Position numbers and translations under genes: made by a program. Source: a virus (Duplodnaviria > Heunggongvirae > Uroviricota > Caudoviricetes). From it: a stretch of 64,000 bases of DNA. Within the stretch, counting starts at the first letter, position 1. Each line of letters starts with the position of its first letter. Below are positions 2,663 through 55,345 of the stretch, in pieces. The DNA lies in the IMG/VR virus record IMGVR_UViG_3300019935_000001, positions 36,145 to 100,144 of that record. The stretch is one strand, 5' to 3'. Under the pieces are notes generated by a model. The model searched no databases, had not been told where the DNA came from, and saw only the letters and a program-made list of their open reading frames with translations.

Positions 2663-3826
2663 TTAATCCATCCCCCACACTCGGCAATAATCTTCAAAGA
2701 TCTCGCCGTATACCAGGTTGAAGTTATCGATTGCCCGCTTATAGGACTCACGGCTCGACAGAGGCTTGTTAAGGTCATAGACGCTTGTCAGTTGCTCACA
2801 CGCCTTCTCGACCTCTGTGGTCTGCACAATGGCGTTACTGAGGACGTATTCGCCGTATAATTCCCTGATGTCAGACTCGACCTTCCGGGCCGTCTGAGTG
2901 CCGCTGTGTTTCGTGATCAAGATACGCACGTAGTCCATCTTCTTGTCTACTGCATCGAACAGAACAGACAGGGAGTTGGAGAACATCACGAACGAAGCCA
3001 GGTCGTAGGTGGCCGGAGGCACTGGGATAACCATGGCGTCCGCTGCGATCAGAGCATTCGTTGTAAGAGCGCCCATGTTCGGCGGGCAGTCGATCAGAAT
3101 CAGGTCGTATATAGGGCGGAGGGCATCCACGACGCGCTTCAGGCGAAGTAGAGGCTCACCCATCTTGCGGGAATTGTTAACGTCCCGGTTCGGGAGAGCC
3201 AGGTCAAGATCCTGAATGCCCAGGTTAGCCGGAATCAGATGGACATTCGGAACGTAAGTCTGACGGATCACATTCTGCAGTGCTGAGTAGTCCTCAAGAA
3301 GCACTGGGTGAATGGTATCTTCAATTGTCAGTTCCAGGTCCGGGATGAATGGCCCCAGCGAGAAGGTCGCGGATGCTTGAGGGTCGAGATCGATAACCAG
3401 AACCTTCATGCCTTTGTTCGAGGCCATATAGTGAGCCTCATTGACAACGCTCGTGGTTTTGCCAACGCCACCCTTGAAGTTACTTGATGCCTTTACGATG
3501 GCACCAGTACCAGAGGGTTTCTGAAAGCCTGTACCAAGCTGTTCGCGCAGTTCCTGGATACGATGAAGGGTGTAGATCTTGCGACCGTTTGTGCCTTTCG
3601 GCGTGTCCTTGTCGTGTTCTCGGAGCCAAGGTACAGAGCGACCAATCATGGCTGCGGCTTCGGCAACACCATATGTCCGTGGCTCTTTCAGGGTCTTTGG
3701 GGAAACTATCGAGGCACGTAGCTCTTCGAGTTTTGCGCTCCCTTTACGATTGAAGTTGGCAAAAGTCTCGCCCGCGTTTTCCATGGCAAGCCGTGACTTT
3801 ACTGTATCGAAGAGGTCTTCTGACAT
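2663..3826 (-). CDS. parA: ParA partition ATPase, type Ia (extended N-terminal domain)
   Basis: 387 aa. Deviant Walker A KGGVGKTT. About 100-aa N-terminal extension typical of P1 ParA / F SopA-type autoregulatory ParA. Confidence 0.85.
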   Translation of the reverse strand: MSEDLFDTVKSRLAMENAGETFANFNRKGSAKLEELRASIVSPKTLKEPRTYGVAEAAAMIGRSVPWLREHDKDTPKGTNGRKIYTLHRIQELREQLGTGFQKPSGTGAIVKASSNFKGGVGKTTSVVNEAHYMASNKGMKVLVIDLDPQASATFSLGPFIPDLELTIEDTIHPVLLEDYSALQNVIRQTYVPNVHLIPANLGIQDLDLALPNRDVNNSRKMGEPLLRLKRVVDALRPIYDLILIDCPPNMGALTTNALIAADAMVIPVPPATYDLASFVMFSNSLSVLFDAVDKKMDYVRILITKHSGTQTARKVESDIRELYGEYVLSNAIVQTTEVEKACEQLTSVYDLNKPLSSRESYKRAIDNFNLVYGEIFEDYCRVWGMD

Positions 3827-5188: not shown

Positions 5189-7360
5189 ATGAACGGAAAG
5201 CAAAAACGTATACAGGTGATCAGAGAAGCGATGCTCAAGGTGGCCCGAATTATGGCCGGTCGTGGAATCAAGATCACTCAGGCGGGCACTGGTGCTTTTG
5301 TTCGGTATAACAGTCACACTGGCTGTATCGAAAGGATCAACATTCCGATGATCCCGGACGATGCCAGCGAAGATTTGATCCACGCAACGCATGGTTTCCT
5401 GGATCACGAGATCGGGCATGTGCTTTTTACTGAGTACGAATGCTTTGCAAAAGCGAACAGGGCCAAATGCGGCGTCTTGTTCAACATTGCGGAAGACACC
5501 TATGTTGAGCGAATGATGCAGTCCGAGTTCACAGGTTCAATCAGTAACCTGGGCAAGTCATGCCAAATCATGACTGAAAGGTACATTGAGCCGAAGCTCC
5601 GGGAGCTGCTGGCGCACACCGTTCCAACCGAAAAGGATTGGTGGGGGCTGTTATGTGCAACCTCTATCCGGGCAATAGCCGGGCAGGAGCACTTCATCGA
5701 TTACATGAACCAGGACGATAAGTGGGATCTGATCCCGAACTTCGGAAAGGTTCTGCGAAAGCACGAAGCTGAGATCAAGGCGATCAGTAGTTCACAGGAT
5801 TCGTATGAAGTGGCATTGAAGATCAAACAGGACATGCTGGCAGCTGAGCCCGAGGAGCAGGACAGTGAGCCAGACCAGTCCGGCGGTGACGATCAGCAGA
5901 GCGGTGGAGAAGGTAAAGCTGAAAAGCCGCAGGGTGACAGTGAAGGCGAAACCGATGATGGCACCCGAGCAGACGATACCTTCTCGAAAGGTGAAGGTGA
6001 AAGCTCTGGCGAAGAAGAAAAAGATGATTCTTCTTCATCTAGTAGCAACACACAACATAACAAAGACAGTGAAGATGATGACCAGTCAGACGAATCGGAT
6101 GCTGATAGCGATGACTCAAAGGGCGAGTCCGGCAGTGCTGGCTCCGATAGCGCTGAAGAAGGTGATGGTGAATCCGACGAAGGCCCTGGTGCCGGTGATA
6201 GTTCGGGGGATGGTTCAGACGATGATGAAGACTCTGAATCAGAAGGCAGATCAGGGGGTGCAGGCTCGTCAGCTGGCGGCGATGACGCAGGTGAAGGCGG
6301 CGATAGCGAGATTGATGCAGATGATGTGATTAATGACCCGATGGCTCCGTTGCTGACTGAATCAGAGGTGGAGAGCATGGGTGAAGACTTCGACGATGCG
6401 ATGACAAAGGTTATCGGCGAGATGTCAGCTGATGCACTTAGAGGCTCTGAAGAATATGTGCCGTTCACACGCGACTGGGACGTTATCGAGCCACTGAAGC
6501 TATCAAGAAACTACGATCCGAATCTGGCCGACAAGGTTGCTGATACAGTCAATTACATGGTTGGCACGATGGCGAAAAGTCTGGAGCGTGCATTTCGTGC
6601 AGCCAACCGATCCCGCTGGGAAGGCGGTAAGAAGTCTGGCCGTATTAACAGCGCCGCACTATCCCGATTACTGGCAAACGACCCACGGGTGATGCGTACC
6701 CGCCAGGAGATGAAGACTCGTGATGTAGCTGTTTCTCTATTGGTGGACTGCTCCGGCTCTATGAGTGGGAAGAAGATGGAGGTTGCGTGTCAGACTGCGT
6801 GGGCGCTGGGCGAGGTGCTATCAAAGCTGAATTTGCCTTGTGAGATACTGGGGTTCACAACCTGCAGAATCAAAAACCAGTTCGACCATTTGGAGAAGGA
6901 GCTGGCTGATGTATTCCGTGACGGTACAGGTCAGCAATTCAGCAGGTTCGAGCCGATCTATATACCTATATTCAAATCATTTGATGAGCGGTTTGGTACG
7001 GCAGCTAAAGCACGCCTTGCGGATGCCGCATACGAGGGTATGCGGCGGAAGATGAACTGCAATATTGATGGCGAATCTCTGCTGTACGCAGCCGAGCGCC
7101 TGCGGAAGCGCCCGGAGCCAGGAAAGGTAATGATTGTGTTGTCAGACGGAGCCCCGGCCGGTGTAGGTAAACAACTTGAAGCTCACCTGAAGAAGGTGGT
7201 CAAAGATCTCAATACCGAAGGCATCAACACTGTCGGGATCGGCATCATGAGTCAGGCGGTGAGATCTTACTACCCCCGCCATGTAATCCTGAACAAAGTA
7301 GAGGACCTCCCAAAGGCAGTTGTAGGGGAGCTGCGGGAGGCAATTCTGGCGAAAGACTGA
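5189..7360 (+). CDS. CobT-like protein with C-terminal VWA domain and long acidic low-complexity linker
   Basis: 723 aa. N-terminal CobT-like region. D/E/S-rich low-complexity segment (nt about 5850-6330). C-terminal VWA domain with MIDAS motif DCSGSMSG. Paired with a CobS-like AAA ATPase. Confidence 0.75.
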   Translation: MNGKQKRIQVIREAMLKVARIMAGRGIKITQAGTGAFVRYNSHTGCIERINIPMIPDDASEDLIHATHGFLDHEIGHVLFTEYECFAKANRAKCGVLFNIAEDTYVERMMQSEFTGSISNLGKSCQIMTERYIEPKLRELLAHTVPTEKDWWGLLCATSIRAIAGQEHFIDYMNQDDKWDLIPNFGKVLRKHEAEIKAISSSQDSYEVALKIKQDMLAAEPEEQDSEPDQSGGDDQQSGGEGKAEKPQGDSEGETDDGTRADDTFSKGEGESSGEEEKDDSSSSSSNTQHNKDSEDDDQSDESDADSDDSKGESGSAGSDSAEEGDGESDEGPGAGDSSGDGSDDDEDSESEGRSGGAGSSAGGDDAGEGGDSEIDADDVINDPMAPLLTESEVESMGEDFDDAMTKVIGEMSADALRGSEEYVPFTRDWDVIEPLKLSRNYDPNLADKVADTVNYMVGTMAKSLERAFRAANRSRWEGGKKSGRINSAALSRLLANDPRVMRTRQEMKTRDVAVSLLVDCSGSMSGKKMEVACQTAWALGEVLSKLNLPCEILGFTTCRIKNQFDHLEKELADVFRDGTGQQFSRFEPIYIPIFKSFDERFGTAAKARLADAAYEGMRRKMNCNIDGESLLYAAERLRKRPEPGKVMIVLSDGAPAGVGKQLEAHLKKVVKDLNTEGINTVGIGIMSQAVRSYYPRHVILNKVEDLPKAVVGELREAILAKD

Positions 7361-7372
7361 TTTACCTGTAAA

Positions 7373-7411
7373 AACAGAACAAGAAAGTTGAGTCCCCTTG
7401 CTCTGTTTTTT
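7373..7411 (+). terminator. Rho-independent terminator after the cobT-like gene
   Basis: Stem AACAGAACAAG / CTTGCTCTGTT followed by a T6-7 run. Confidence 0.55.
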
Positions 7412-7414
7412 ACA

Positions 7415-7446
7415 ATGTAAGCTCTTACTTAGCAATTAAGTAGTAA
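7415..7446. promoter_or_regulatory. Palindromic-family element variant upstream of the cobS-like gene (ATGTAAGCTCTTACTTAGCAATTAAGTAGTAA)
   Basis: TAAGCTCTTACTTA core plus TAAGTAGTAA. Followed by the leader GACACACTAGAGACGG. Confidence 0.4.
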
Positions 7447-7471
7447 CGACACACTAGAGACGGACAGAAGA

Positions 7472-8683
7472 ATGACGACCAAAGCTATCAACTGCGAAAT
7501 CTGTGGCGCATCGGTTCACACGATCAAAAAGCACCTGCGTGACGAGCACGAAGAGTGGACTCTGGAAAAGTATCAGGAAGAGTTCCCGGACGCTCCAATC
7601 TTCTCTGAGCTGGCGCTGCGGAAGATTGAAGAGGCCCGCAGTAGAACAAAAGCATCGGTCACGCAACTGGCAGAAGCTAATCCGGCTCAGCAGATCATCG
7701 AGCAGCAGAGCGTTAAGGTCGGAAAGATCGAGATGGGCAAAGCGTTCCGTCTGGGCAACACGAAAGCGACAGTCTCCCAAAAGTCTGGAAACCCGATCAT
7801 GATCACTCAGCTGCAGCGGGATAGCGTCAACTCGCCAGATATGATCCCGGAGTTCGATGATGGCTATATCTTCGACATTGAAGTCCTGAAAACGCTGTTG
7901 ATGGGCATCGAGCTGAGCATTCCTACTTACCTGTATGGTCATGCCGGTTTGGGAAAATCAACCATCTTTGAGCAGATTGCATCTGTCACCAACCGCCCGA
8001 TTCGTCGTGTGCAGCATACGGTGAATACAGAGGAATCTCACATCGTTGGTCAGTACGTTGTGAATCATGTGGAAGACCCGAAGACGGGCGAGCTGAAGGC
8101 GAAGACTGAGTTCCAGCTCGGCGATCTGCCGCTGGCGATGATGAACGGTGAGATCTTCCTTGCCGACGAGTACGACCGTGCCTATCCGTCTGTACTGTCT
8201 GTATACCAGGCAGTGCTGGAGGGTAAGCCCCTGCATATCAAGGATGCACCCGAAGAGCTGCGCGTGATCAAACCACATCCGCAATTCAGATTCGTAGCGA
8301 CCGGCAACACAAACGGCGCAGGTGACGACACCGGCTTGTATCAGGCTACGGTCGTACAGGACGCTGCGACATTTGAACGCTTTGGAATCGTTGAACGCAT
8401 CGACTACATGCCGAAGAAGCAGGAGGTTGCAATACTCCGAGCCAAGACCGGTTTGCTGGAAGAAGACGCCTCGGACATCGTGAAGTTTGCTACGCATATC
8501 CGGAAAGACGCCTTCCCGAACGAAGTGTCTCTGACCATCGGCCCGCGTGTGCTACTGAATATTGCCCGCGTCGGTATCGCCCGATTCAACACGCTGAAAG
8601 GTATCGAGGTTGCATACGCGAACCGACTGCCGGAAGCCGAGCGCCAGGCTGCTATGAACTATGCGCAGCGGATCTTCGGCTAA
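7472..8683 (+). CDS. CobS-like / MoxR-family AAA+ ATPase
   Basis: 403 aa. Walker A GHAGLGKST and MoxR-like architecture. Conserved leader ACACACTAGAGAC before the ATG. Confidence 0.75.
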   Translation: MTTKAINCEICGASVHTIKKHLRDEHEEWTLEKYQEEFPDAPIFSELALRKIEEARSRTKASVTQLAEANPAQQIIEQQSVKVGKIEMGKAFRLGNTKATVSQKSGNPIMITQLQRDSVNSPDMIPEFDDGYIFDIEVLKTLLMGIELSIPTYLYGHAGLGKSTIFEQIASVTNRPIRRVQHTVNTEESHIVGQYVVNHVEDPKTGELKAKTEFQLGDLPLAMMNGEIFLADEYDRAYPSVLSVYQAVLEGKPLHIKDAPEELRVIKPHPQFRFVATGNTNGAGDDTGLYQATVVQDAATFERFGIVERIDYMPKKQEVAILRAKTGLLEEDASDIVKFATHIRKDAFPNEVSLTIGPRVLLNIARVGIARFNTLKGIEVAYANRLPEAERQAAMNYAQRIFG

Positions 8684-8693
8684 GGAGCGCGTC

Positions 8694-9269
8694 ATGACAC
8701 GACCACAAAATGCACCAGGCTGTTACGGCGTGGGCATTGCCTCCATGAAGAGTCCTGTCTGTAAAGAATGCGCAGCTCGTGAGGGTTGCGCAGAACGAGC
8801 TGTAGAGAACCTGCAGCTCGCTTCCGAGACGGTTGATGTAACCGATTACCTCGCAGTACATGGCCTGGCGCCAAAGCATAAGGGCGAGATGCCCCGCCAC
8901 TATCTAGCAAAGGTGAAAGTCCGGAAGGCGACTCAGCAGGAGCTGAGCATGTTCACAACTATGCCCGCAAAGGCTCGATCCATTGCAGAGTCATTGGTGA
9001 AGAAGAACATCTGTCTTCACACGAGCCTATCAACGAACCAGAACCCCTTTAACACAAACAAACCTCAGTACCTGAAGCCCGTATTCGACATGATACTGAA
9101 CTCCGGGGCGGTGTCCCGCCGCTCGATTATCGACGCGATCCGCTTATCTGGCAGCTCTGCTGCAACTCAGCGATCTCAGCTGTCAACTGCAATAGGGCTA
9201 CTGGAAGGCACCGGAGTCCTGATCAGAGATGGCGCTGAAAATTACAAGGTAGCAAACCGTGACATTTAA
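8694..9269 (+). CDS. Hypothetical protein with N-terminal Cys cluster (zinc-ribbon-like) and C-terminal wHTH-like region
   Basis: Start moved to ATG 8694 (AGGAG RBS at 8682-8686). Cys pairs CYGVG..CKEC..C. Confidence 0.45.
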   Translation: MTRPQNAPGCYGVGIASMKSPVCKECAAREGCAERAVENLQLASETVDVTDYLAVHGLAPKHKGEMPRHYLAKVKVRKATQQELSMFTTMPAKARSIAESLVKKNICLHTSLSTNQNPFNTNKPQYLKPVFDMILNSGAVSRRSIIDAIRLSGSSAATQRSQLSTAIGLLEGTGVLIRDGAENYKVANRDI

Positions 9270-12200
9270 CCTGACGCACTACATTGGTTGCCGCACCCAC
9301 TTCAGTCTGGGCGAAAGCATCCTGTCCCCTAAGCGGGCCGTTAATGAGCTGTCCGGCATTGCGCCGAGCATGACGATTACCGACCTGAACTCTGTAAATG
9401 CTCTGCCGAAGTCCTACAAGGAGGCGAAGAGCGACGATTTGAATCTGAATTTTGGCGCTGTCTTTAAGGTCGTTGATGACCTGGAGTGGCGGAAGCCAAA
9501 GAAGGGTGAGAAAAAGACAGTTAACCATTTCTTCTCACCTCGACTGATCGCCAAGAATGTAGATGGCATGAAGGACATCATGCACTTGCTGTCCGTATCG
9601 AATGATGCAGACCACTTCTACATGACACCACAATGCTCCATTGAGGAGCTGATCGAGGCAGCTTCACGCGGCAACGTGTACGTGACCACCGGGGACACGG
9701 ATTCGCTGTTTGCGCACCCGGAATACAGAACAAAGCTAGTGCAGCTGGTACGCGCTCTGAAAGCGTCTGATTTGCTGTTTGAAGTCGTTCCAGTCTGCAC
9801 GGCATATTATGACCGTCTTAACGAAACGACGATCAGAGTTGCAGAGAGACTGTCTGCAGCCATGATCGTCACGCGACCGATCTATTACAGCTCCAGCATG
9901 AGCGGCACCCGCAACGCCATGTACTGCGTGAAGAATCGTAGCCAGGTAACAGAGCGCTGGCGCTCCGAGCCTGCAGTGAACAACCTGCACCCCCTGGTTG
10001 CTGCAGACATGGAGCAGGAGCTGAGCAACCTGATAGATCGAATGGTGCTGCGCGACCTGGATCGTGATGCTGTGACTGAAGCCCTGCACCGCGCTGTCGA
10101 TACCACCAACGCTCTGCCTGAAAAGCTGAACTACGCCTGGGAACCATATGACATCTGTCTACCTTCCATGAGTGATGATCCGTTTGGTGGGCTGGTAGAG
10201 ATCGTAAAGCAAGGCTGGACAGACCGGATCGAAAAGGTGGTATACGGGTTCCAACCAGATCAGAGCCAGCTACCGGAGTATCGGGAGCGCCTGAAGTACG
10301 AACTATCTGTCTTGAAGCGCATGGGCTTTGAGAACTACTTCCTTCTGGTGCATCAGGTGGTGTCGCAGGCTAAATCCATGAACATCATGGTAGGCCCGGG
10401 ACGAGGATCTGTAGGTGGATCACTCGTCGCATTTTTGATGGGGATCACCGATGTTGACCCTATCCGCTTTGGCCTGATCTTTGAACGATTCATCAACCCG
10501 GATCGACTCGACCTTCCTGATGCCGACCTCGACTTTATGTCCTCCCGCCGTGAAGACATCATTAAATGGTTGGTCAAAGAGTATGGCCAGGATTATGTGT
10601 GTGGCATCAGTAACTACGGTGAGCTTGGTGCATCTTCGGCACTAAGGAGCGCAGGTAAGATCCACGGCCTGACCGAAACCGATGTTTCATGCTCCAAACA
10701 GGTGCCGAAAGAGCACGGTTCCAGCAAGTCACTGGAAGAAGCGAGAGAAGAGGTTCCGGCAATCAAGGTCTTCGCAGATAAGCACCCGGAAGTGTGGGCA
10801 GACGCCTGCAACCTGCAGGGCATCTTCAACGTTTACGGCCAGCACGCTGCAGGTGTTGTAGTGGCCGGCGAACCCATCATTGAACGTGCTGTGGTTGAAG
10901 TCCGCAAAGGCGGTCAGCTCTGCAACTGGGACAAAAGCGTGGTCGAAGAGTTCGGCCTGGTTAAGCTCGATGTGTTGGGCCTGAGTAACCTGGATGTACT
11001 GCGCCTGGCAAAGGACTACATCAAAGAGCGTCATGGCGTAGCAATCGACTACGAGGATGTTCCGCTGGATGATCCGGACGTTCTGGCTGCATTCGGTGAG
11101 GGCAAGACAAACGCCGTGTTCCAGTTCGAGTCTGGCGGTATGAAGGGCCTGCTGAAGTCACTGGCAGAGTCCGGAAGCCTGACGTTTGAAGACATCGCAG
11201 CGGCAACCGCTCTATTCCGTCCGGGCCCAATAGACGCTGGCCTGATGGATCAGTATGTCGCCATCAAAAACGGCAACATGACAGAGACGTACCCGCATCC
11301 GATTTGTGAAGGCGCGCTGCGAGAAACATACGGGGTAATGGTCTATCAGGAGCAGGTAATGCAGATCGCTCGGGATCTGTCGGGCTTCTCGATGGCTGAA
11401 GCTGACAAGCTGCGTAAAGCGATCGGTAAGAAAGACGCCGACCTGATGGCATCAATGGGCGAGAAGTTCGTGCAGGGTGCTCAGGAGTCGGGCATGGCCG
11501 AAGTATCTGCACAGGCATTGTGGGATGACATCCTCGGCTTCGCGGCTTACTCCTTCAACAAGTCTCACTCTGTCGCCTACACGATGATCTCCTACCTGAC
11601 GATGTGGCTGAAGGTAAAGTACCCGGCAGAGTTCTTTGCCGCCTCAATGTCGATCCTGAAAGAAGAGAAGCTGCCTGGCCTGGTGCGTGACTGTACCGAA
11701 GCTGGCTTGATCGTAGTGCCCCCGGACATTAACCGCTCCACTGACAGGTTCGAGATTGGCTATGACGGTGCCAGACAGTGTGATTCTCTGATTATCCCGT
11801 TCCAGCGATTGAAGGGTCTATCCGAGAAGGCGAGCGCGGCGATTGTCGAGGCCCGTGAGAAGCGGAAAGAAGAGCAGGGCGATAGTCGCTTTGTTTCAAA
11901 GAATGACTTCCTGGGCTATGTGGTGAAGCGGGTGTGCAATGTCCGGGTACAAAGTGCCCTGGATGCGGTCGGTGCTTTCGCGGAAATCGAAGGTCAGATT
12001 CCAGCTCTGCACCCGGATCGAATCAAAGATCAGAAGACCCTGCTACCGGGACTGATCGCCAGCAATGTGAAGGCGGACAGAAAGATCGACCTGTCACCTT
12101 TCGTTCGGCGGGAGCTGGTCGGGCTGATGCAGGAAGCAAAAGACTGCTGCGAAACCTTCAAGGGTGAAACCGTTGTCGGCCCAGCAATGGCTAAAGGTCG

Positions 12201-12660
12201 CGTACCGAAATTCATGGTCGTGATGGATGCACCGAACTGGGGCGAGAAAGATGCTGGCGTCATGTTGAAGGGAAAAGCCAGCAGAGACGTGCTGACTGCC
12301 CTGGACGAAGCCGGGCTCAAGCCTAGCGAGGGTTACTTTACGGCTCTGTCGAAAATGATGAAGCCGAAAGGTGAGAAGCAGATACCACAGCAAATGCTGA
12401 TCGACTTTGGCCCTATCCTGGCGCAAGAGATCGAGCTGCTGAAGCCACCGGTGATTGTGGCGCTCGGAACGGCTGCGGCCCGCTTCCTTCTGCCTGATCT
12501 GAAAGGTGGTTGGGAAGAGATCGCAGGTACAAGCCACTACGATGCCAAGCGGGACTGCACGGTGGTGATCGGGTGCAACCCGTCAATGGTGTATTTCGAT
12601 CCCGACCGGATCAACATTATCGTGGACGCATTTGAAAAAGCACGGGAGATGACAGAATGA
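9259..12660 (+). CDS. dnaE: DNA polymerase III alpha-subunit-like replicative polymerase (DnaE family) with C-terminal UDG-superfamily-like domain
   Basis: 1133 aa. N-terminal PHP motif HYIGCRTHFSLGESIL. Palm/fingers region GRGSVGGSLVAFLMGITDVDPIRFGLIFERFINPDR. The last roughly 170 aa align to family-4/5 uracil-DNA glycosylases with altered motifs (MDAPN for GEGPG; NPS for HPS). GTG start. Confidence 0.85.
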   Translation: MTFNLTHYIGCRTHFSLGESILSPKRAVNELSGIAPSMTITDLNSVNALPKSYKEAKSDDLNLNFGAVFKVVDDLEWRKPKKGEKKTVNHFFSPRLIAKNVDGMKDIMHLLSVSNDADHFYMTPQCSIEELIEAASRGNVYVTTGDTDSLFAHPEYRTKLVQLVRALKASDLLFEVVPVCTAYYDRLNETTIRVAERLSAAMIVTRPIYYSSSMSGTRNAMYCVKNRSQVTERWRSEPAVNNLHPLVAADMEQELSNLIDRMVLRDLDRDAVTEALHRAVDTTNALPEKLNYAWEPYDICLPSMSDDPFGGLVEIVKQGWTDRIEKVVYGFQPDQSQLPEYRERLKYELSVLKRMGFENYFLLVHQVVSQAKSMNIMVGPGRGSVGGSLVAFLMGITDVDPIRFGLIFERFINPDRLDLPDADLDFMSSRREDIIKWLVKEYGQDYVCGISNYGELGASSALRSAGKIHGLTETDVSCSKQVPKEHGSSKSLEEAREEVPAIKVFADKHPEVWADACNLQGIFNVYGQHAAGVVVAGEPIIERAVVEVRKGGQLCNWDKSVVEEFGLVKLDVLGLSNLDVLRLAKDYIKERHGVAIDYEDVPLDDPDVLAAFGEGKTNAVFQFESGGMKGLLKSLAESGSLTFEDIAAATALFRPGPIDAGLMDQYVAIKNGNMTETYPHPICEGALRETYGVMVYQEQVMQIARDLSGFSMAEADKLRKAIGKKDADLMASMGEKFVQGAQESGMAEVSAQALWDDILGFAAYSFNKSHSVAYTMISYLTMWLKVKYPAEFFAASMSILKEEKLPGLVRDCTEAGLIVVPPDINRSTDRFEIGYDGARQCDSLIIPFQRLKGLSEKASAAIVEAREKRKEEQGDSRFVSKNDFLGYVVKRVCNVRVQSALDAVGAFAEIEGQIPALHPDRIKDQKTLLPGLIASNVKADRKIDLSPFVRRELVGLMQEAKDCCETFKGETVVGPAMAKGRVPKFMVVMDAPNWGEKDAGVMLKGKASRDVLTALDEAGLKPSEGYFTALSKMMKPKGEKQIPQQMLIDFGPILAQEIELLKPPVIVALGTAAARFLLPDLKGGWEEIAGTSHYDAKRDCTVVIGCNPSMVYFDPDRINIIVDAFEKAREMTE

Positions 12661-17075: not shown

Positions 17076-18368
17076 GTGTTCACCGTTCTGTGTCACCGTT
17101 TTATTCACAGGTCGACATACTGGTCGATTCTGTCAGGGAAGTGGATGCTCAGCTGAGACAGCGTGAGGTTCCAGTTCTGCACTGGATGCGTCCACTTCTC
17201 TGAGGCCCTCAATATGCCCGCATAGAGCAGCTTCAGCAGGCTGTTTTCATTGGCGAAGCCACCCTTGGTTTTGGTCAGTTTCCGGAACTGACGGTGCACG
17301 GCCTCAACTGCATTGGTCGTGTAGATCGCACGCCTTACCTGTTCCGGGTACTTGAAGTACACCGACAGGTTCTCCCACTTGCTACGCCATGACTTGATGA
17401 CCAGCGGGTACTGTTTCCCCCACTTTGCCTCCAGCTCGTCCAGCGCCTGCTCTGCGGCGTTTCGCGTCGCCGCCTTGTAGACGCATTTCAGATCCACCAT
17501 AAATGCCTTCTGATTCTTGCTGGCGACGTACTTCATGGAGTTGCGGATCTGGTGAACAATACACAGCTGTACTTCTGTTTCCGGATAGATGCTTTCGATC
17601 GCTTCAGGAAAGCCTTTCAGACCATCCACAGAGGCAATAAGGATGTCTTTCAGACCTCGATTCTGCAGATCTGTCAGGACGCTGAGCCAGTAATGTGCAC
17701 CTTCATTTTCAGACAGATAGAGTCCCAGCAGCTCCTTCTTACCTTCGATGGTTAGCCCAAGAATGGTGTACACCGCTTTGGAGATGAAACGACCATTCTC
17801 TTTCACTTTGTAGTGAATGGCATCCAGCCAGACAAAAGGGTATACCGGCTCCAGATCACGCTCTTGCCAGGCTTTAAGCTCCGGCACCAGGCGATCAGTT
17901 ACGGCGTTAATCATGCCGTTGGAGACGCTCATACCGTACATTTCACAGATATGGTCACGGATGTTCTGGTAACTGCTGCCTAATGCAAACAGAGACAGTA
18001 TCTTGCCTTCCATTTCATCAGTCAGACGGGTCTGATATTTCCTGACAGTCTGGGGCTCAAATGAGCCATTGCGATCTCTCGGCGTCTCCAGCTCGAACTC
18101 GCCAGCAGCGGTTTTGACTGTTTTCTTTGAGGTGCCATTTTTCCGATTGGCGGCCGGATTTTCTGCAAGGTGCTCATCAATCTCTGCACCCAATGCGGCT
18201 TCAGTGATCTGTTTGATCAGTGGTGTCAGGAGGCCATCCTTGCCATTGAGGTTCTGTCCAGATTGCAGCGCTTTGGCAAACGCCTGAATATCGATTTCGT
18301 ACTTGTCAGACATGATGTGTCGCTCCCCGTTTCACTCAGTGTAGGAAACGACACAGAACTCTGAACAC
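17076..18368 (-). mobile_element. IS256-family insertion sequence (about 1.29 kb)
   Basis: Mutator/IS256-type transposase flanked by imperfect terminal inverted repeats (17076 GTGTTCACCGTTCTGTGTCACC... vs reverse complement of 18368 GTGTTCAGAGTTCTGTGTCGTT...; 17 of the first 19 positions identical). No target-site duplication could be identified. Confidence 0.7.
17105..18313 (-). CDS. IS256-family (mutator-type) transposase
   Basis: 402 aa spanning nearly the whole element. Typical IS256 transposase conserved blocks (..WLDAIHYKVKENGR.., ..CIVHQIRNSMKYV.., YTTNAVE). Confidence 0.9.
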   Translation of the reverse strand: MSDKYEIDIQAFAKALQSGQNLNGKDGLLTPLIKQITEAALGAEIDEHLAENPAANRKNGTSKKTVKTAAGEFELETPRDRNGSFEPQTVRKYQTRLTDEMEGKILSLFALGSSYQNIRDHICEMYGMSVSNGMINAVTDRLVPELKAWQERDLEPVYPFVWLDAIHYKVKENGRFISKAVYTILGLTIEGKKELLGLYLSENEGAHYWLSVLTDLQNRGLKDILIASVDGLKGFPEAIESIYPETEVQLCIVHQIRNSMKYVASKNQKAFMVDLKCVYKAATRNAAEQALDELEAKWGKQYPLVIKSWRSKWENLSVYFKYPEQVRRAIYTTNAVEAVHRQFRKLTKTKGGFANENSLLKLLYAGILRASEKWTHPVQNWNLTLSQLSIHFPDRIDQYVDL

Positions 18369-24295: not shown

Positions 24296-24330
24296 GCGCA
24301 CCGTTGTACCAACACACATACGAGATGACC

Positions 24331-24924
24331 ATGATTATAAACGTACTGGGTTGTGACCCGGCTCTGAGTAACTTTGGCCTGGCGCAGGCACAGATCGATA
24401 CTGACACTGGCGAGATTAAGCCGCTCCGTCTGGATCTGGCGGAAACCGCCCCCTCCAAGAACAAAAAGGTTCGCAAGAACAATGACGACCTTGAGCGGTG
24501 TCGAAAACTGACCGAGGCGCTGAGAAAGAACAGTAACGGCGCTTCTGTTTGTTTTGTAGAAATGCCGGTCGGCAGTCAGTCAGCGAGAGCAATGGCCTCA
24601 TATGGTGCATGTATGGGCATTCTGTCGGGCAGTCCGCTTCCGCTGATTCAGCTGACACCAAAAGAAGTGAAAGAGGCTGCGGTCGGAAACCCGAACGCCT
24701 CAAAAGAAGAGATGATTGCCTGGGCCTATGAGAAGTACCCGGATCTGAACTGGATTAAAGGGGATAGCCGAAGCAAAAACCCTGGCAATCTCGCCAACAA
24801 GAATGAGCACCTTGCCGATGCTATCGCGACCCTGCACGCGGGCGTTAACCATGAAGACTTCCGGTCTGTTGTCTCTATCCTGCGAATGACGCAGAGCGGG
24901 GGGTTCGGTGAGTTCGCACATTAA
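24331..24924 (+). CDS. RuvC-like Holliday junction resolvase
   Basis: Start moved to the ATG after the conserved leader CACACATACGAG. MIINVLGCDPALSNFGLA matches the RuvC N-terminal catalytic Asp block. Confidence 0.7.
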   Translation: MIINVLGCDPALSNFGLAQAQIDTDTGEIKPLRLDLAETAPSKNKKVRKNNDDLERCRKLTEALRKNSNGASVCFVEMPVGSQSARAMASYGACMGILSGSPLPLIQLTPKEVKEAAVGNPNASKEEMIAWAYEKYPDLNWIKGDSRSKNPGNLANKNEHLADAIATLHAGVNHEDFRSVVSILRMTQSGGFGEFAH

Positions 24925-25003
24925 ACTGCGCATTTGAGATTGGAGGGTATTCGCCTGATCACGAAAAAGGGCGTGGGGAGGGGGCATCAGCTCCCTTCTT
25001 GGG

Positions 25004-25393
25004 CTATGACTTGTCGTTGACCCCGAAGAGACCTTTAAGGATGAAGCCAACCAGCCCGACGACGATTGTCATCGAGGTTAGCATAGCTAAGGCTACGGTC
25101 TCAGGTATGGGTAAGTTAAGCTTCACCTGATGGTTCATGTAATAGAGCAGGCCAAACACTACAACCACGCACCACCAACACATGAAAAGAAATACGTGTC
25201 TTGCGAGATCTTCTTTCAATCGATTGTTCGTATGCTGCCCTTCAGCATGAGCGCGTGTAAGCGCTGCATTCGCTTTGGCCTGCACATAGTTGTAATCATG
25301 CCCTTGCTCGTTAAGTACAGACCCTTCTGTTTCCTGGACCTGTCGAGGGCTGTTGGAGCCCGCTCTGCCTCCTGCAAATGGCCCTTCTGTCAC
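25004..25393 (-). CDS. Small membrane protein with two C-terminal TM helices; candidate toxin partner of the Panacea-domain protein
   Basis: 129 aa. Translationally coupled to the upstream Panacea gene by a 4-nt overlap. Hydrophobic helices FLFMCWWCVVVVFGLLYY and LAMLTSMTIVVGLVGFIL. Confidence 0.45.
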   Translation of the reverse strand: MTEGPFAGGRAGSNSPRQVQETEGSVLNEQGHDYNYVQAKANAALTRAHAEGQHTNNRLKEDLARHVFLFMCWWCVVVVFGLLYYMNHQVKLNLPIPETVALAMLTSMTIVVGLVGFILKGLFGVNDKS

Positions 25394-25920
25394 AGTCCTT
25401 TCACGCTCTTTGGGTTTTCTACAACTTTCTGAAAGTGGTCACGAATTAGGGCGTTTGGTATATTCGCAAACGGGCGATCTTTTCCACCATTCTTGTTCCA
25501 AACTTCGTCCCACGGTGTGTCAGCCCGGTGGGTTAGATCCACGAGATCCATAGCCTCCTGTTCACCATAAAGATCAAGAACGCCTCTGATGACCGTCATA
25601 TCATCCTGACTGAAATGGACGGAAGGGGGCCCAAATTCACGGATCTTGCTTGAGCCATGATGCTTGTATTCATGGTAGATGGCTTGAATCACAGGCCCGA
25701 ATTTCCAAGCCTGGGTGTCATCCATGTACAAAGCTCTTCCTCTCCAGCCAAGCATATAGCCGTGCGCAATGTACGTCAGTTTTTGCAGCTGAAGGTTTGA
25801 AAGGAAAATACTCTTCTGTGCTGCCACATGAAGCATCATCTGAGCCACATCGGTGGCATTGTGCAAAATGCCGGTTTCCTGCTCGACAGCGGAGCTGGCT
25901 GTGCTGGATGTATTTGTCAT
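25390..25920 (-). CDS. Panacea-domain (DUF4065, SocA/PanA-like) putative antitoxin
   Basis: 176 aa. LQKLTYIAHGYMLGWRGRALYMDDTQAWKFGPVIQAIYHEYKHHG matches the Panacea domain core (KLxYxAxG..W..GPV...Y..Y). Confidence 0.65.
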   Translation of the reverse strand: MTNTSSTASSAVEQETGILHNATDVAQMMLHVAAQKSIFLSNLQLQKLTYIAHGYMLGWRGRALYMDDTQAWKFGPVIQAIYHEYKHHGSSKIREFGPPSVHFSQDDMTVIRGVLDLYGEQEAMDLVDLTHRADTPWDEVWNKNGGKDRPFANIPNALIRDHFQKVVENPKSVKGL

Positions 25921-26321
25921 ACCTAACCCTCCGTTGTGTTGGGTTTTACTGTATATATTGACAGTGTTAGATCATTTGATTTTATGTTGGAGAGAGCCTG
26001 CGTGCAAATTTAATTGAGTTAAATTTATGACATCCGGCGTGTAGATTGAGGTTGCGCTGACAGAACAAGATAGAGGGGGTTATGATGCTGCAAGGGATTC
26101 AGTGGTCATATCGATACTGCGACATGATAAGAATATTGGCCGTGACGAATGGTTAATCGAAAAGACTTTTCTTTGACCCTTTCGTGTGAGCGCGAAGTAC
26201 GGATATTGATCTGTAGGGTCAGGCCCTAGTGGCCTGAATAGCTAGCTAGTCTAGCTACTGTGCAAGCCTGAGAAAAGCAGGCTGCAGATCTTCGCTTTAG
26301 CTGCTGCCAATCAGCGTAATT

Positions 26322-26567
26322 TTACTGGTAACAGTCCTCCTCGGGGCAATCGATTTCTCCTTCCCCGTCGCATTTTTCGCACTCAACCTCATAAAGAACC
26401 CCCTCTCCATCACATGAGTGACAGCTCTTGAGTCTCCCCTCATCATCCGGGTACAGCCCTGTGCCATTGCACTGGTGGCAATCCCGATCTAGCAAGCCTC
26501 CATTACAGTTATCGCAGTGAATTTTTCCTGTATCCATACATGTTGTGCATTTAATAGCTTTACACAC
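26322..26567 (-). CDS. Cys-rich mini-protein with five CxxCxGxG DnaJ-type zinc-finger repeats
   Basis: 81 aa: CTTCMDTGK, CDNCNGG, CHQCNGTG, CHSCDGEG, CEKCDGEG. Isolated within a 1.5-kb low-coding-density region. Confidence 0.4.
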   Translation of the reverse strand: MCKAIKCTTCMDTGKIHCDNCNGGLLDRDCHQCNGTGLYPDDEGRLKSCHSCDGEGVLYEVECEKCDGEGEIDCPEEDCYQ

Positions 26568-27354
26568 AGCGTTTGCCTCATAGTGAGTTGGTGATTTGAT
26601 CCCTCACTACGTCCAAGCTGCACGCGACTACCCTGAGACAGCCGAGGGTCAGTTTGGCAACTTGTGACGCAGAGGGGATACGACCTTCGCGTCAGTGCCA
26701 AAGCACCGGCCTTATTTATATGGGGGGTGGAACGTAGAATCCAAGAGGCTTTAGACTGAAAAGTGGCAGATCTAACCTGTATGGCGAGAAATGCCGCTTA
26801 ATTCGTAAGTTGAGACTACGGAATCAAAAATAAAACTATATTCAATATCGACCTCCGTCTCGTACAGAAAGCAGGAGTTTATGTACAAAGTAGACACCAC
26901 TATATCGGATACGAGCGGCCCCTGACTCTGCATCGGGAGATCGCTATTGCCGCACAGGTACGACCAATTGCAGGCGTGAACTTTAGTCGCTAGGTAACCA
27001 GCTAACCGGCGGCCTCTTTTTCCGAGCCAAAATGTAGTTATCCAGACAAACCCGGCGATGCAAGGCTCTTGTCTGGATGGGATAGATGGGATTAAAGAGA
27101 GAGCTTCAGAGAGAGCTTCAGAGAGCCGAAGAGGGAGCCGACTGAGTTTTTGCCATTCATTTAGTGCTTGAAAGCCGAAACGCCGGGCTCGCCTTATTCC
27201 CCTTGAGGTCGGCTTCTTGTTTGGCTGGTCGAATAGTGAAAGTCCCATCCTTGATTCCTACTTACAGATCGCAACAGACAAATCCTAGATTAGCATTCTG
27301 TAAATTCCAGTAAATTCCCAGCTTTTTAAGCTAAACCATAAATGAGCCTTTATA

Positions 27355-27377
27355 AATAAGTAGTAACTGACTTATAA
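27355..27377. promoter_or_regulatory. Palindromic promoter/operator element upstream of nrdA (ATAAGTAGTAACTGACTTATAAA)
   Basis: Member of the TAAGT..CTGACTTATA family. Followed by the leader CACACACATGGGAGAC. Confidence 0.45.
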
Positions 27378-27401
27378 ACTTTGTAACATGCTGCGCACTC
27401 A

Positions 27402-31549: not shown

Positions 31550-31573
31550 CCAACACACATAGAGATGACCACC

Positions 31574-32455
31574 ATGAAAAAGATTATTGCCCTGATTACC
31601 GTTGCCGCCACTGTAGCACTGGCAGGCTGCTCCCAGCCGGTTCCTCCTGCTCACAAAGGTAAGAAGCTAGATCCTACCGGCTATGCACCCGACATCTACC
31701 CGCCGGGCCGCGTCAACGGCTTTGGCCCGTTTTCACGGAGCCAGCTGATTTTGATCGAAACCGGCTCCCGCACCATGAAAGAGACAGTCACAGTGAAGCT
31801 GAAGGATCGTGCGGAGCTGACTTTTGATTTGCGCTTCCGTACTCGCATTGATGGCAGCGACACGGTGATTAACAGCATGTTCAACGACATCGTGCCGGTT
31901 AACAACCTGGTGACCCTGAACATGGTGTACGACACCTATGGCCGAATGATTGTCCGTAATAAGGCCCGTGAAGTGATCAACGATTACAGCCTGGAAGAGA
32001 TCAATCTGAACTACGACCGGATCAGCTCTGAAATGGCGATTGAGATTGAGAAATCGTTCAAGTCGATCCCACTAGAGATGTCTGATGTTGCCCTGGGCAA
32101 TATTCGTTGGCCTGAAGAGGTGACAGAGGCAATCAATGCCGCTCTGAAATCTAAGGCTGACATCGCCCGCATTGAGGCAGACAAGGCCAAAGAAATCGCC
32201 AGTGCACAATCACGAAAGGCCATTGCTGATGCTAACTACGCTGCCGACCAGTCCGAAGCTCGCTCTGTCCGTGACTACAACAAAACTGTGGGCGCCGGTA
32301 TCTCCGAGCAGTTCCTGCGATACAAGGCTCTGATGCTGCAGGAGAAGATGATTGCTCAGATGGGCAAGGACTCCGGCTCCAAGGTCGTCTACATGCCATA
32401 CGACGCTATGGGCACCATGGGTGCTCAAATGCAGATGTTCGGCAGCCAGAAGTAA
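31574..32455 (+). CDS. SPFH/band-7 (prohibitin-like) domain lipoprotein
   Basis: Start at MKKIIALITVAATVALAGCS (signal peptide plus lipobox LAGC) after the leader CACACATAGAGATGACC. SPFH-like central region with Ala/Gln-rich coiled-coil tail. Confidence 0.6.
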   Translation: MKKIIALITVAATVALAGCSQPVPPAHKGKKLDPTGYAPDIYPPGRVNGFGPFSRSQLILIETGSRTMKETVTVKLKDRAELTFDLRFRTRIDGSDTVINSMFNDIVPVNNLVTLNMVYDTYGRMIVRNKAREVINDYSLEEINLNYDRISSEMAIEIEKSFKSIPLEMSDVALGNIRWPEEVTEAINAALKSKADIARIEADKAKEIASAQSRKAIADANYAADQSEARSVRDYNKTVGAGISEQFLRYKALMLQEKMIAQMGKDSGSKVVYMPYDAMGTMGAQMQMFGSQK

Positions 32456-53592: not shown

Positions 53593-55095
53593 ATGTTGTA
53601 CCGGATTATTGTCGCCAAGGGTGCTAACTATGGCCGGGTGCTGGGAGCCCACGTTTCAGATTCCGCTGCAGGTCGTGCCCTGGGCAAAAACAAGCAGGAG
53701 TTTGGAACAGGCTCGGTACTACTAATCGAAACAGACGAGCGACTGGTGCAGGGTGTGTGTTACCCGGATGTTGCCGATCAGGGTATTGCCGATCATCACC
53801 ATAAGTCAGGTATGCGCCTGATGGAACTGGTCATTAAAAACCGGGCCACCGGTGAAGTGCCGGATTGGGTGATTGCCAGCATCATAGATGAAGGCTGGAC
53901 GATGGATTCGCTGAGCCAAGAGTTTGGGCCGCTGGTTCACCAGAAAATGGAGCAGGAGCGCCGCGAGCACCAGAAGCGGGCAGAGCGCTCTGCAATGATT
54001 CACGCAGGTCGCCTCTGGATGAAGAAAGAGATCGATGACCACGTTATCGAGCTGCCAGCCATTACAGGAACCCAAGCTCGCCGCCAATTCTTCACCGTTC
54101 AGATGACTCTGCAGCAGGTTGACCGGCTTTTGACTGCAGATCACAACGATCTGGCCCCTGAAGATCGCAGCCAGCGCAAACTGAACCCGGCACGGGGCAA
54201 AAAGCTGGGCGGGTACATTGTTGGGAACCACGACAGCTACGTTCTGCCGGCCATCACCGTCTGTATCGATCCGGATATGACCTTTGACCCGATTGAAGGG
54301 TTCGGCGGGGCAGTTGGCACCCTGAAAATACCGGTAACGTCTCTGGTCTATATCATTGACGGCCAGCACCGGCGTGAAGGTATCCGGTGGGCCTTGTCCG
54401 CTCAGTCGCTCCGCTGGCAGATGCAGAAGGAGACGATTGCGGTCACCATTTACTACGATGAAGGGCCTGAACGGCGTCAGCAGATGTTCTGTGACATCAA
54501 CTATCCAGCTGTCCGGGTGTCATCCTCTTTGAACATGCTCTACGACCGCCGAAACTCACTGAACCACTGGATTCTCGATATTTTGGCTAAAAATCAGTCA
54601 ATTTGGGGTCGAATTGAGCTGGATAGCGCGAGCGTAGGTGCCCAAAGTTCCAAATTGTGGGCCGTAGTCGCCATGAAGAAGGCTCTCCTCACGGTTTTGG
54701 GGTTGTCAGAAGTGCAATTTTTCACCAAAACCGATGAAAATCGGGCCGAAATGGAAAAGGTGGTCGATAGGTTCTTCGACACTCTGGCAGAATATCTGCC
54801 GCGCTGGGGCATGGTGATAGACCCGGATTGCTCCGCTCCGGACATCAGGAGCGACTATATTGTTGGCCACGCTGTTTTCCTGCAGGCGCTAGCTATCGTT
54901 GCCCGCAAAGCCCAGGAAGAAGAGGGCGGCTGGCAGAAGCTGTCCGGGCTGGCCAAGCTCGACGTAGCGCGAGATTCAGAAGTGTGGGAAGGTAAATGTG
55001 TCGTCAATGGAAGGATGAACCGGTCGGCAGCCGGGGCCAACGCCACTGCGGCAGAAATTTGTAGCCAGATTGGCATAGAAATGGACTGGAGTTGA
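53593..55095 (+). CDS. DGQHR-domain protein (DndB/DpdB-like ParB-Srx fold) with about 150-aa N-terminal extension
   Basis: 500 aa. Signature VYIIDGQHRREGIRWAL followed by FCDINYPAVRVSSSLNMLYD, matching the DGQHR family blocks (iDGQHR ... F.d.N.....s.sl..l.d). Confidence 0.7.
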   Translation: MLYRIIVAKGANYGRVLGAHVSDSAAGRALGKNKQEFGTGSVLLIETDERLVQGVCYPDVADQGIADHHHKSGMRLMELVIKNRATGEVPDWVIASIIDEGWTMDSLSQEFGPLVHQKMEQERREHQKRAERSAMIHAGRLWMKKEIDDHVIELPAITGTQARRQFFTVQMTLQQVDRLLTADHNDLAPEDRSQRKLNPARGKKLGGYIVGNHDSYVLPAITVCIDPDMTFDPIEGFGGAVGTLKIPVTSLVYIIDGQHRREGIRWALSAQSLRWQMQKETIAVTIYYDEGPERRQQMFCDINYPAVRVSSSLNMLYDRRNSLNHWILDILAKNQSIWGRIELDSASVGAQSSKLWAVVAMKKALLTVLGLSEVQFFTKTDENRAEMEKVVDRFFDTLAEYLPRWGMVIDPDCSAPDIRSDYIVGHAVFLQALAIVARKAQEEEGGWQKLSGLAKLDVARDSEVWEGKCVVNGRMNRSAAGANATAAEICSQIGIEMDWS

Positions 55096-55098
55096 GAT

Positions 55099-55344
55099 AT
55101 GGACACAATAGGCCGAATGGTGTCGCAGTGGGCGACTGAAGATAAGGAACAGATCAATGCGCTGGTTGAGCAGCATGGGGATCTGGTAGTGGAAGTCACC
55201 GGTGCCGACGATGGTTGTGTTTATGCCACCGCGGGCACCTATCGTCTGTCTCTGAACCCGGAGGCTGTCAACGAAGAGGTAGACAACAAGTCTATTAGCG
55301 ACATTCGCCACCTGATCCTGAAAGTGTACCCAACGGTCGATTAG
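55099..55344 (+). CDS. Hypothetical small protein, middle gene of the DGQHR-ATPase module
   Basis: 81 aa. 3-nt spacing to both neighbours. Confidence 0.4.
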   Translation: MDTIGRMVSQWATEDKEQINALVEQHGDLVVEVTGADDGCVYATAGTYRLSLNPEAVNEEVDNKSISDIRHLILKVYPTVD

Positions 55345-55345
55345 A

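Follow-up and report, generated by a model that had tools for sequence, protein, structure and literature searches.

Among the described toxin–antitoxin (TA) systems, one of the closest relatives of the locus analysed here is the PanA–PanT pair of Escherichia coli STEC O31, the PanA of which (WP_000287252.1), an antitoxin of the Panacea (DUF4065) type, was validated by Kurata et al. 2022 (PMC8832971). In the part of the dataset of that study considered here, this locus is listed with toxin cluster T3, the order A|T, a gap of 22 nucleotides (nt) and the result 'TA', and Table 1 of the paper gives 'Membrane' as the mode of action of the E. coli T3 toxin (PMC8832971). The E. coli T3 PanT stops transcription, translation and replication together, depolarises the membrane (DiSC3(5)) and admits SYTOX Green, and the neutralisation of the tested PanTs by PanA is independent of ClpXP and Lon, hence the classification of the systems as type II (PMC8832971). 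Among the T3 toxins, depolarisation and permeabilisation have been shown for the E. coli member only. Here we analyse a related locus in a 64,000-nt stretch of tailed virus DNA (hereafter, the window; IMG/VR record IMGVR_UViG_3300019935_000001, positions 36,145 to 100,144). It consists of two minus-strand genes: panA (25390-25920), an open reading frame (ORF) of 176 amino acids (aa) that starts with ATG and encodes a standalone Panacea protein, and panT (25004-25393), a 129-aa ORF that starts with GTG and encodes a protein with two C-terminal transmembrane (TM) helices. Taken as a whole, the explanation that we favour, with reasonable though far from complete confidence, is that this is a bicistronic type II PanA-PanT operon that encodes a T3 membrane toxin, is controlled by LexA and serves as an addiction module of a phage-plasmid.

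A first-pass annotation, made from the letters of the DNA alone, had proposed a PanA-PanT type II TA pair with a toxin partner that was not obviously a described one. Both ORFs are present as it had described them, and the identity of the pair is supported by profile searches and by conserved synteny. The claim of an undescribed toxin is wrong, given the homology of the window PanT to the E. coli PanT and to the T3 entry from Pleionea, and the existing annotation of a homologous phage pair. In E. coli chromosomes, the gene upstream of the PanT homologue encodes WP_000287252.1, and its partner toxin shares 38% identity over 77 residues with the window PanT (blastp, E=1e-12), with the respective PanAs being 31% identical over 163 aa (E=2e-27). 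The E. coli protein compared is WP_000019187.1, and its link to WP_000019185.1, the toxin tested by Kurata et al., depends on three points of agreement, namely, the PanA accession, the 22-nt gap and the length of the toxin. Pleionea mediterranea DSM 25350 (locus L010) is listed as T3, with a -4 overlap, among the entries of the Kurata 2022 dataset considered here (PMC8832971), and its toxin is 35% identical to the window PanT over 112 residues (E=4e-18). Among cultured phages, PanT matches were found only in three E. coli lambdoid phages, and the homologous pair of PhiR47_1 (GenBank PV340566.1) is already annotated as PanA/PanT. The closest named relative is the 121-aa PanT of Aeromonas sp. 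R6-2 (42% identity, E=2e-30). By homology, the window toxin is a member of PanT cluster T3, a described family, and the locus is a divergent short-form relative of the validated family.

The conserved pairing of the two genes is the second line of evidence. We fetched 65 loci with a PanT homologue, 14 from one-genome-per-species contigs and 51 from IMG/VR. A Panacea ORF is located immediately 5' of the PanT homologue, on the same strand, in 63 of the 65; the remaining two end at a contig edge and have no upstream DNA. The PanA-then-PanT order thus holds in 63 of the 63 informative loci, from many genera, and the pairing is not a matter of chance. In the window, the 4-nt overlap that had been noted at first pass is the tetranucleotide GTGA (25390-25393, minus strand), which holds both the GTG start of panT and the TGA stop of panA. 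An ATGA/GTGA junction recurs in the short-form relatives from Pseudoalteromonas, Pleionea, Niveispirillum and Aeromonas (L006, L010, L014 and L076), which supports the GTG start of panT as well as the translational coupling of the two genes that the first-pass annotation had suggested. Two forms can be seen among these loci, in a long form, the E. coli type, the PanT has ~180-195 aa and the spacer 22-47 nt; in a short form, the window type, the PanT has ~119-135 aa and the genes overlap or abut.

Recognition of the PanT family depends on sensitive searches. The 129-aa protein has no family in Pfam, NCBIfam or PADLOC, and a word-indexed protein search with PanT alone returned only the identical protein; the family surfaced through exhaustive HMMER comparison with 1.84 billion representative proteins, which yielded 65 PanT-related clusters at E<=1e-3. 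The family profile retrieves 81 proteins at E<=1e-5. In the PHROG collection, PanT matches phrog_13343 and phrog_26171, two families without an assigned function; in Pfam, 45 scanned family members fell into no family and 8 of them had weak DUF2975 matches, and a Foldseek comparison of the PanT model with BFVD gave no match at E<=1e-3. The family alignment is variable at the N-terminus and conserved over a C-terminal module of ~85 residues, which includes a helix, TM1 with F.FM..WC, the loop IP.EV and TM2 ending in VGLVGF..GLF. The invariant residues of the family are all present in the window PanT (A64, F70, M71, G113, V115, G116, G121, L122 and F123). This retention, along with the conservation of the short overlapping form as a subtype in several genera, speaks against the distinctly unlikely possibility that the pair is a decaying or inert remnant, with intact ORFs but toxicity or neutralisation lost, carried as a passenger on a low-GC island. 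Such a remnant would be compatible with the truncation of the PanT N-terminus relative to the validated E. coli form, with a Shine-Dalgarno-like AAGGA that sits just 2 nt from the panT GTG and with the lack of toxicity of some predicted PanTs in E. coli (PMC8832971). However, one short-form T3 toxin among the dataset entries considered was 'stuck in cloning', which the paper ascribes to probable excessive toxicity (PMC8832971).

The window PanT comprises a disordered N-terminus (residues 1-29), a conserved pre-membrane helix (~30-65), TM1 (~66-88), the loop LPIPE and TM2 (~98-126), which bears the family signature VGLVGFILKGLFG. The two-TM C-terminus described at first pass is seen both by hydropathy, with hydrophobic stretches at ~66-86 and 98-126 and Kyte-Doolittle 19-residue means that reach 2.3, and in an AlphaFold2 model built from a 46-sequence alignment, where helix 30-92, a short loop and helix 98-127 form a helical hairpin after the disordered residues 1-29. 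The mean predicted local distance difference test (pLDDT) score of the model is 73.6, with ~88-91 in the membrane part. For the Bartonella pair, the predicted contacts of the standalone Panacea are with the pre-TM helix and the unstructured N-terminus of PanT, and mutations in the interface abolish neutralisation (Ernits 2023, PMC10440598). Given that the layout of the window PanT matches that of the Bartonella PanT, we propose that the Panacea domain of PanA binds PanT residues ~1-65, that is, the disordered N-terminus and the pre-TM helix, and would thereby block membrane insertion or assembly. By homology to the E. coli T3 and Bartonella pairs, free PanT would enter the inner membrane through its C-terminal helical hairpin, with depolarisation and permeabilisation as the result, and translational coupling through the GTGA junction would hold the synthesis of PanA and PanT in step.

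The two-TM architecture of this small protein and the depolarisation and permeabilisation of the membrane by the validated E. coli homologue, together with an SOS box (see below) that would turn the protein on at prophage induction, also invite a different interpretation, namely, that the 129-aa protein is an SOS-induced phage membrane protein, such as a holin-like lysis timer or a superinfection-exclusion factor, with PanA as its inhibitor or timer. We regard this as very unlikely because strict pairing with Panacea is a hallmark of TA systems, no holin family in Pfam or PHROGs is matched and no endolysin or spanin gene is adjacent, the neighbours being the ruvC-like gene, panA, a zinc-finger ORF and nrdA. 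Furthermore, homologues reside in chromosomal non-prophage settings as well, for example, in Aeromonas, between sulfate-assimilation and lipid A acyltransferase genes.

On the antitoxin side, the DUF4065/Panacea core that had been recognized at first pass corresponds to residues 44-88 and lies largely within a PF13274 (SocA_Panacea) match to residues 45-137 of PanA (E=7.5e-16 in Pfam), with a score of 59.5 bits compared to the gathering cut-off of 25.7; in PHROGs, PanA matches phrog_1281 (E=4.4e-35). The GPV motif, a Panacea signature that is reported to be critical for neutralisation (Kurata et al. 2022, PMC8832971), is present as G74-P75-V76, within FGPVIQ at residues 73-78. PanA is a single Panacea domain without an extra N-terminal (DNA-binding) domain. 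The cultured-phage PanAs nearest to it come from Pseudomonas and Halomonas phages (~32-35% identity). In these phages, Pseudomonas vB_Pae_CF183a and Halomonas H4907, the downstream partner is a different ~130-aa membrane protein with the motif KMLFS.A.GG (L073 1973-2362; L074 734-1126), which is not detected by the profile of the window PanT family and may represent another PanT cluster or extreme divergence. Such a difference of membrane partner among the nearest phage PanAs fits the partner swapping described for Panacea.

The best NCBIfam match of PanA is SocA_antitoxin (NF047745, E=3.2e-27), and Panacea is the SocA domain, which raises the prospect of a SocAB-like type VI system in which PanA would not inhibit the toxin by binding but would serve as an adaptor that hands it over to ClpXP to be degraded. 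Membership in SocAB was rejected, as the family requires 190 bits, far above the score of 95.3 obtained here, and PanA is paired with a two-TM membrane protein instead of a SocB-like inhibitor of the replication clamp. With the tested PanTs neutralised without ClpXP or Lon (PMC8832971), a type VI mechanism is highly improbable.

The type II operon that we favour is preceded by a feature that suggests how it is regulated. A LexA (SOS) box-like palindrome, TACTGTATATATTGACAGTG, is located 26 nt 5' of the panA ATG (25947-25966, no strand assigned). It agrees with TACTG(TA)5CAGTA, the gammaproteobacterial LexA consensus as quoted in PMC7556043, at 17 of 20 positions, with the CTGT-N8-ACAG core intact. 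It is the sole site with <=3 mismatches in the 64 kb, and 0 of 100 shuffles give any; among the 44 CTG-N10-CAG sites in the window, the runner-up has 7 mismatches. Between the box and panA, a Shine-Dalgarno sequence, GGAGG (25928-25932, minus strand), can be read 7 nt 5' of the ATG, and a sigma-70-like promoter candidate (25979-26008, minus strand; TTTGCA, an 18-nt spacer and TAAAAT, 9 of 12 consensus positions) abuts the box upstream, although the latter is a weak call made from position. Judged from sequence, LexA control of the panAT operon is probable. Host LexA, bound to the near-consensus box just downstream of the candidate promoter, would set transcription, such that the operon would be low in undamaged cells and would go up on DNA damage.

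Similar boxes recur at other T3 loci. When boxes with intact CTG/CAG and <=5 mismatches were counted within 250 nt upstream of panA, 6 of the 29 non-redundant other T3 loci had one, compared to 0.5 expected from the background rate of the same loci (Poisson P ~1.5e-5). The E. coli prophage panAT has a box 121 nt from the annotated panA start, Buttiauxella panA has one upstream, and in three P2/186-like prophages the box directly follows the replication gene, in one case with just 2 mismatches. In the alphaproteobacterial Niveispirillum locus, there is an alpha-type GAAC-N7-GAAC repeat. Neither of the two PanAT papers (PMC8832971, PMC10440598) mentions LexA or SOS. The T3-associated PanAs in the part of the Kurata 2022 dataset considered here are all 'noNTD', that is, without a DNA-binding domain (PMC8832971), so LexA would supply the missing transcriptional regulator. 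It is conceivable, although we put this forward only tentatively, that T3 PanAT operons are wired to the host SOS response where PanA lacks a DNA-binding domain, with LexA as the repressor, DNA damage arming the toxin pair, and the wiring having arisen or been kept in several mobile elements. The elements in question may include a lambdoid prophage end, P2/186-like prophages, chromosomal islands and the phage-plasmid of the window. As for SocAB, a direct link to LexA in Caulobacter was considered and dropped, since the literature gave only co-induction under SOS-activating iron limitation.

Two arrangements were noted among these loci. In the P2/186-like IMG/VR contigs L027, L028 and L030, the box is right after a ~650-aa replication gene and ~170-200 nt before panA, a location that we take to coincide with that of the late-region promoter of phage 186, which LexA controls. 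Should this be correct, panAT in these contigs may ride on an existing SOS-controlled transcript. At an enterobacterial lambdoid prophage end (L077 7031-8567, L078 1800-3336), dinI, panA and panT follow each other on one strand, with dinI directly upstream of panA-panT and a 3-mismatch LexA box 37 nt upstream of dinI.

The cassette occupies a distinct accessory stretch. The neighbouring sbcD-like, sbcC-like, ruvC-like, nrdA and nrdB genes are all on the plus strand, and panA and panT, located after the ruvC-like gene on the minus strand, are inverted relative to them, as pointed out in the first-pass annotation. The window shares the gene order sbcD, sbcC, two unknown genes, HNH, ruvC, nrdA with Pseudomonas phage nickie, where the distance between ruvC and nrdA is just 88 nt, and the G+C content between these genes in the window is 0.44-0.50 versus 0.53-0.57 in the flanks. 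The short gap in nickie and the low G+C content identify the 2.4-kb stretch 24925-27401 (no strand assigned), between the ruvC-like gene and nrdA, as an accessory island that includes panT, panA, an 81-aa ORF and ~0.8 kb without a convincing gene, and they bear out the earlier notion of an inserted cassette. The insertion is judged against distant relatives, phage nickie and an Acinetobacter baumannii plasmid (see below); a search with the RuvC-like protein gave no close relative in IMG/VR and one distant 2.3-kb contig without useful flank in the JGI metagenomes. The island borders have no direct or inverted repeats, ARAGORN found no tRNA in the island, and Rfam at a permissive threshold found no RNA family there, the one sub-threshold CRISPR-repeat match being judged a chance occurrence.

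Within the island, a G+C-rich hairpin (24970-25005, no strand assigned) lies between the convergent ruvC-like gene and panT and overlaps the panT stop codon. RNAfold of 24916-25010 gives -34 kcal/mol for the plus strand and a weaker structure for the minus strand; the hairpin is a possible terminator, though without a clear T-run. The 81-aa ORF (26322-26567, minus strand), 400 nt 5' of panA, has repeated CxxC and a weak match to the DnaJ-type zinc finger; it was not found beside panAT in the other loci. The ~0.6 kb before nrdA (26772-27401) is of low G+C content, contains two copies of the tandem 12-nt repeat AGAGAGAGCTTC at 27096-27119 and could have a regulatory function or consist of decayed DNA. 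A 158-aa ORF at 26772-27248 was rejected as a gene as it has no family match and an odd composition.

The element that carries the island is probably a phage-plasmid. The window encodes a replication-initiator-like (HTH_36 or DnaD-like) protein (175-1305), a ParB_N protein (1601-2659) and a ParA (AAA_31/CbiA; 2663-3826), all on the minus strand, and the nearest phage ParAs are those of the N15-like phage-plasmids phiKO2 and PY54. The SbcC-like protein matches 969 plasmids in PLSDB, mostly non-mobilizable and ~105-110 kb in size, from Klebsiella, Escherichia, Acinetobacter and others, with the best matches in A. baumannii (44% identity over the full length). Their counterparts in Pfeifer et al. 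2021 (PMC7969092) are the AB and SSU5-related groups of phage-plasmids. The A. baumannii plasmid NZ_CP115646.1 (L075, ~105 kb) has the same local gene order as the window. An IS256/Mutator-family transposase (17105-18313, minus strand) between the recA-like and sbcD-like genes has its nearest named relatives in Marinobacterium jannaschii (87%), Salinivibrio (84%) and Vibrio (83%), which points to a marine gammaproteobacterium as the host. Marine gammaproteobacteria use the E. coli-type LexA box. We consider the carrier to be probably a phage-plasmid of roughly 100 kb, previously unsampled and akin to the AB and SSU5 groups, with a marine gammaproteobacterium as its host; the window protein is recorded on a contig of 102.7 kb, and the ParA/ParB/replication-initiator module speaks for the phage-plasmid reading. 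The flanking genes had been described as those of a phage; they probably belong to a phage-plasmid, and the element is probably not a plain lytic phage. A lytic Nickievirus-like phage as the carrier was considered and displaced by the partition genes, the replication initiator and the 969 plasmid matches.

Post-segregational killing is the classical role of a TA cassette on a plasmid prophage. The phage-plasmid context favours this option, and the cassette would accordingly act as an addiction module of the phage-plasmid, possibly also as a defence against competing phages; addiction is a plausible role, which we rank ahead of anti-phage defence. The main competing explanation retains the same PanAT pair and invokes selection for anti-phage defence by abortive infection or exclusion, whereby infection, or the DNA damage that it causes, frees or over-induces PanT and the collapse of the membrane potential aborts the invader. 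TA systems are increasingly recognised as defence systems, and the phage-encoded membrane-depolarising Rosmer TA protects against coliphages (PMC10440598). The distribution of the family is compatible with such a role, with most T3 homologues at prophage ends or moron-like positions, not on plasmids, and just one weak PanT match in the 72,556 plasmids of PLSDB, and the LexA box would tie expression to DNA damage. Yet, PADLOC gives no match, we came across no published case in which a T3 PanAT acts in defence, the carrier encodes partition and replication functions, and the syntenic plasmid relative has a classical Doc-type addiction toxin nearby. Selection primarily for defence is a serious alternative, though the less probable of the two, and the two roles are not mutually exclusive.

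Several observations weigh against the LexA-controlled addiction module of a phage-plasmid as the explanation of this locus. The identity to the toxin of the validated locus is just 38% over 77 residues, the window PanT is ~50 N-terminal residues shorter than the E. coli form, and WP_000019187.1 is linked only indirectly to the tested WP_000019185.1. Kurata et al. saw no toxicity in E. coli for eight predicted PanTs, and in some pairs PanA failed to neutralise its toxin (PMC8832971). PADLOC has no match to PanA or PanT. The only other exact copy of the window PanT is in contig L003, where the cassette DNA is 100% identical, which leaves no independent sign of selection on this exact pair; among 50,697 phage records, megablast found nothing that matches 24300-26600. 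With regard to regulation, 23 of the 29 T3 loci have no LexA-like box by the above count, and sigma-70-like sites are no more numerous in the region than in shuffles. As for the carrier, the nearest cultured relatives, the Nickievirus phages, are predicted to be virulent (PMC11256456), and the scanned parts of the window yielded no virion genes.

Several other genes of the window were noted. The DnaE-type polymerase (9259-12660, plus strand), with PHP, Pol III alpha, finger and HHH domains and a C-terminal fusion to a domain of the uracil-DNA glycosylase superfamily, is 47% identical to that of phage nickie. Upstream of it, a 723-aa CobT-like protein with a VWA domain is followed by an AAA_5 (MoxR/dynein-type) ATPase (5189-8683, plus strand). 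A SPFH/Band-7 membrane protein is encoded between nrdB and thyA (31565-32455, plus strand), a further accessory slot of the nucleotide-metabolism block. At 53593-56185 (plus strand), a DndB-family protein (DNA-sulfur-modification-associated, E=6e-76) precedes an AAA_15/AAA_21 ATPase, and the two may form a module for DNA modification or defence; further on, 58356-59069 encodes an Endonuclease I.

The window pair is a divergent short-form addition to a validated TA family and, as such, leaves the knowledge of PanAT unchanged. The most worthwhile aspects of the locus are the recurrent SOS box and the phage-plasmid setting. The recurrence of near-consensus LexA operators at several unrelated T3 loci offers a testable answer to the question of what regulates PanAT operons in which the antitoxin has no DNA-binding domain and which cue activates them. 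If the proposed wiring is real, an SOS-controlled panAT on a phage-plasmid would shut down the membrane in response to DNA damage or to prophage induction. Furthermore, the presence of panAT here and of a Doc-type TA in the neighbouring slot of the Acinetobacter relative indicates that addiction or defence cassettes are swapped in this lineage.

Among the described systems, the locus closely resembles the PanAT of E. coli STEC O31 (WP_000287252.1 and WP_000019185.1). The two share a standalone Panacea encoded upstream, a charged N-terminal region and two C-terminal TM helices in the toxin, the module 'WC...IP.EV..ALL...VGLVGF..GLF', a location in a mobile element of the phage type and a CTGT-N8-ACAG box upstream of panA. 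They differ in the length of the toxin (182 aa in E. coli versus 129 aa in the window, with ~38% identity in the common module), in the gene junction (a 22-nt gap versus a 4-nt overlap) and in the setting (a lambdoid prophage end versus a large phage-plasmid-like element), and the E. coli pair is experimentally validated whereas that of the window is assigned by sequence. Closer in format are the short-form T3 loci, namely, Pleionea mediterranea DSM 25350, Grimontia hollisae and Pararheinheimera mesophila, all among the entries of the Kurata 2022 dataset considered here, and Aeromonas sp. R6-2. Like the window, they have a PanT of 119-129 aa and an overlap of -4 (ATGA/GTGA) or -10, and their toxins are 35-42% identical to that of the window over ~110 residues; the Aeromonas locus also has a LexA-like box, 21 nt before panA, compared to 26 nt in the window. 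These loci are chromosomal, unlike the phage-like replicon analysed here, and none is recorded as experimentally validated in those entries, one being the toxin 'stuck in cloning'.

The PanT(D11/T12):PanA pair of Bartonella choladocola (apis) similarly combines a standalone Panacea with a membrane-depolarising toxin, and in its PanT, as in that of the window, a short helix and an unstructured N-terminal region precede the TM segment. It is the one membrane PanT whose neutralisation interface is supported by mutagenesis (PMC10440598). The Bartonella toxin belongs to a different cluster and is likened to the window PanT by layout; T3 and T12 are perhaps related yet do not cluster together (Kurata et al., PMC8832971). 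By setting, the nearest parallel is the Doc (death-on-curing) cassette of the A. baumannii AB-group plasmid, which, together with phd/doc of P1, exemplifies type II TA on a plasmid prophage. This cassette, with a small upstream gene (L075 14820-15601), comes right after nrdB and, like panAT in the window, is inverted within the nucleotide-metabolism block; the same plasmid has a HicA toxin gene before sbcD (L075 5235-5447). The toxin and antitoxin families of Doc and phd/doc are unrelated to PanAT, and the insertion slots differ, being ruvC|nrdA in the window and nrdB|thyX in the A. baumannii plasmid.

By regulation, the parallel is TisB/IstR-1 of E. coli, a LexA-regulated type I system in which the antitoxin is an RNA and the membrane toxin has 29 aa. 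In TisB, as predicted for PanT, an SOS box gates the transcription of a small toxin that depolarises the inner membrane. The two systems have no homology, and the antitoxin of the window is a protein, with LexA control predicted. If that prediction is correct, an SOS-wired panAT would be the protein-antitoxin counterpart of SOS-induced TisB.

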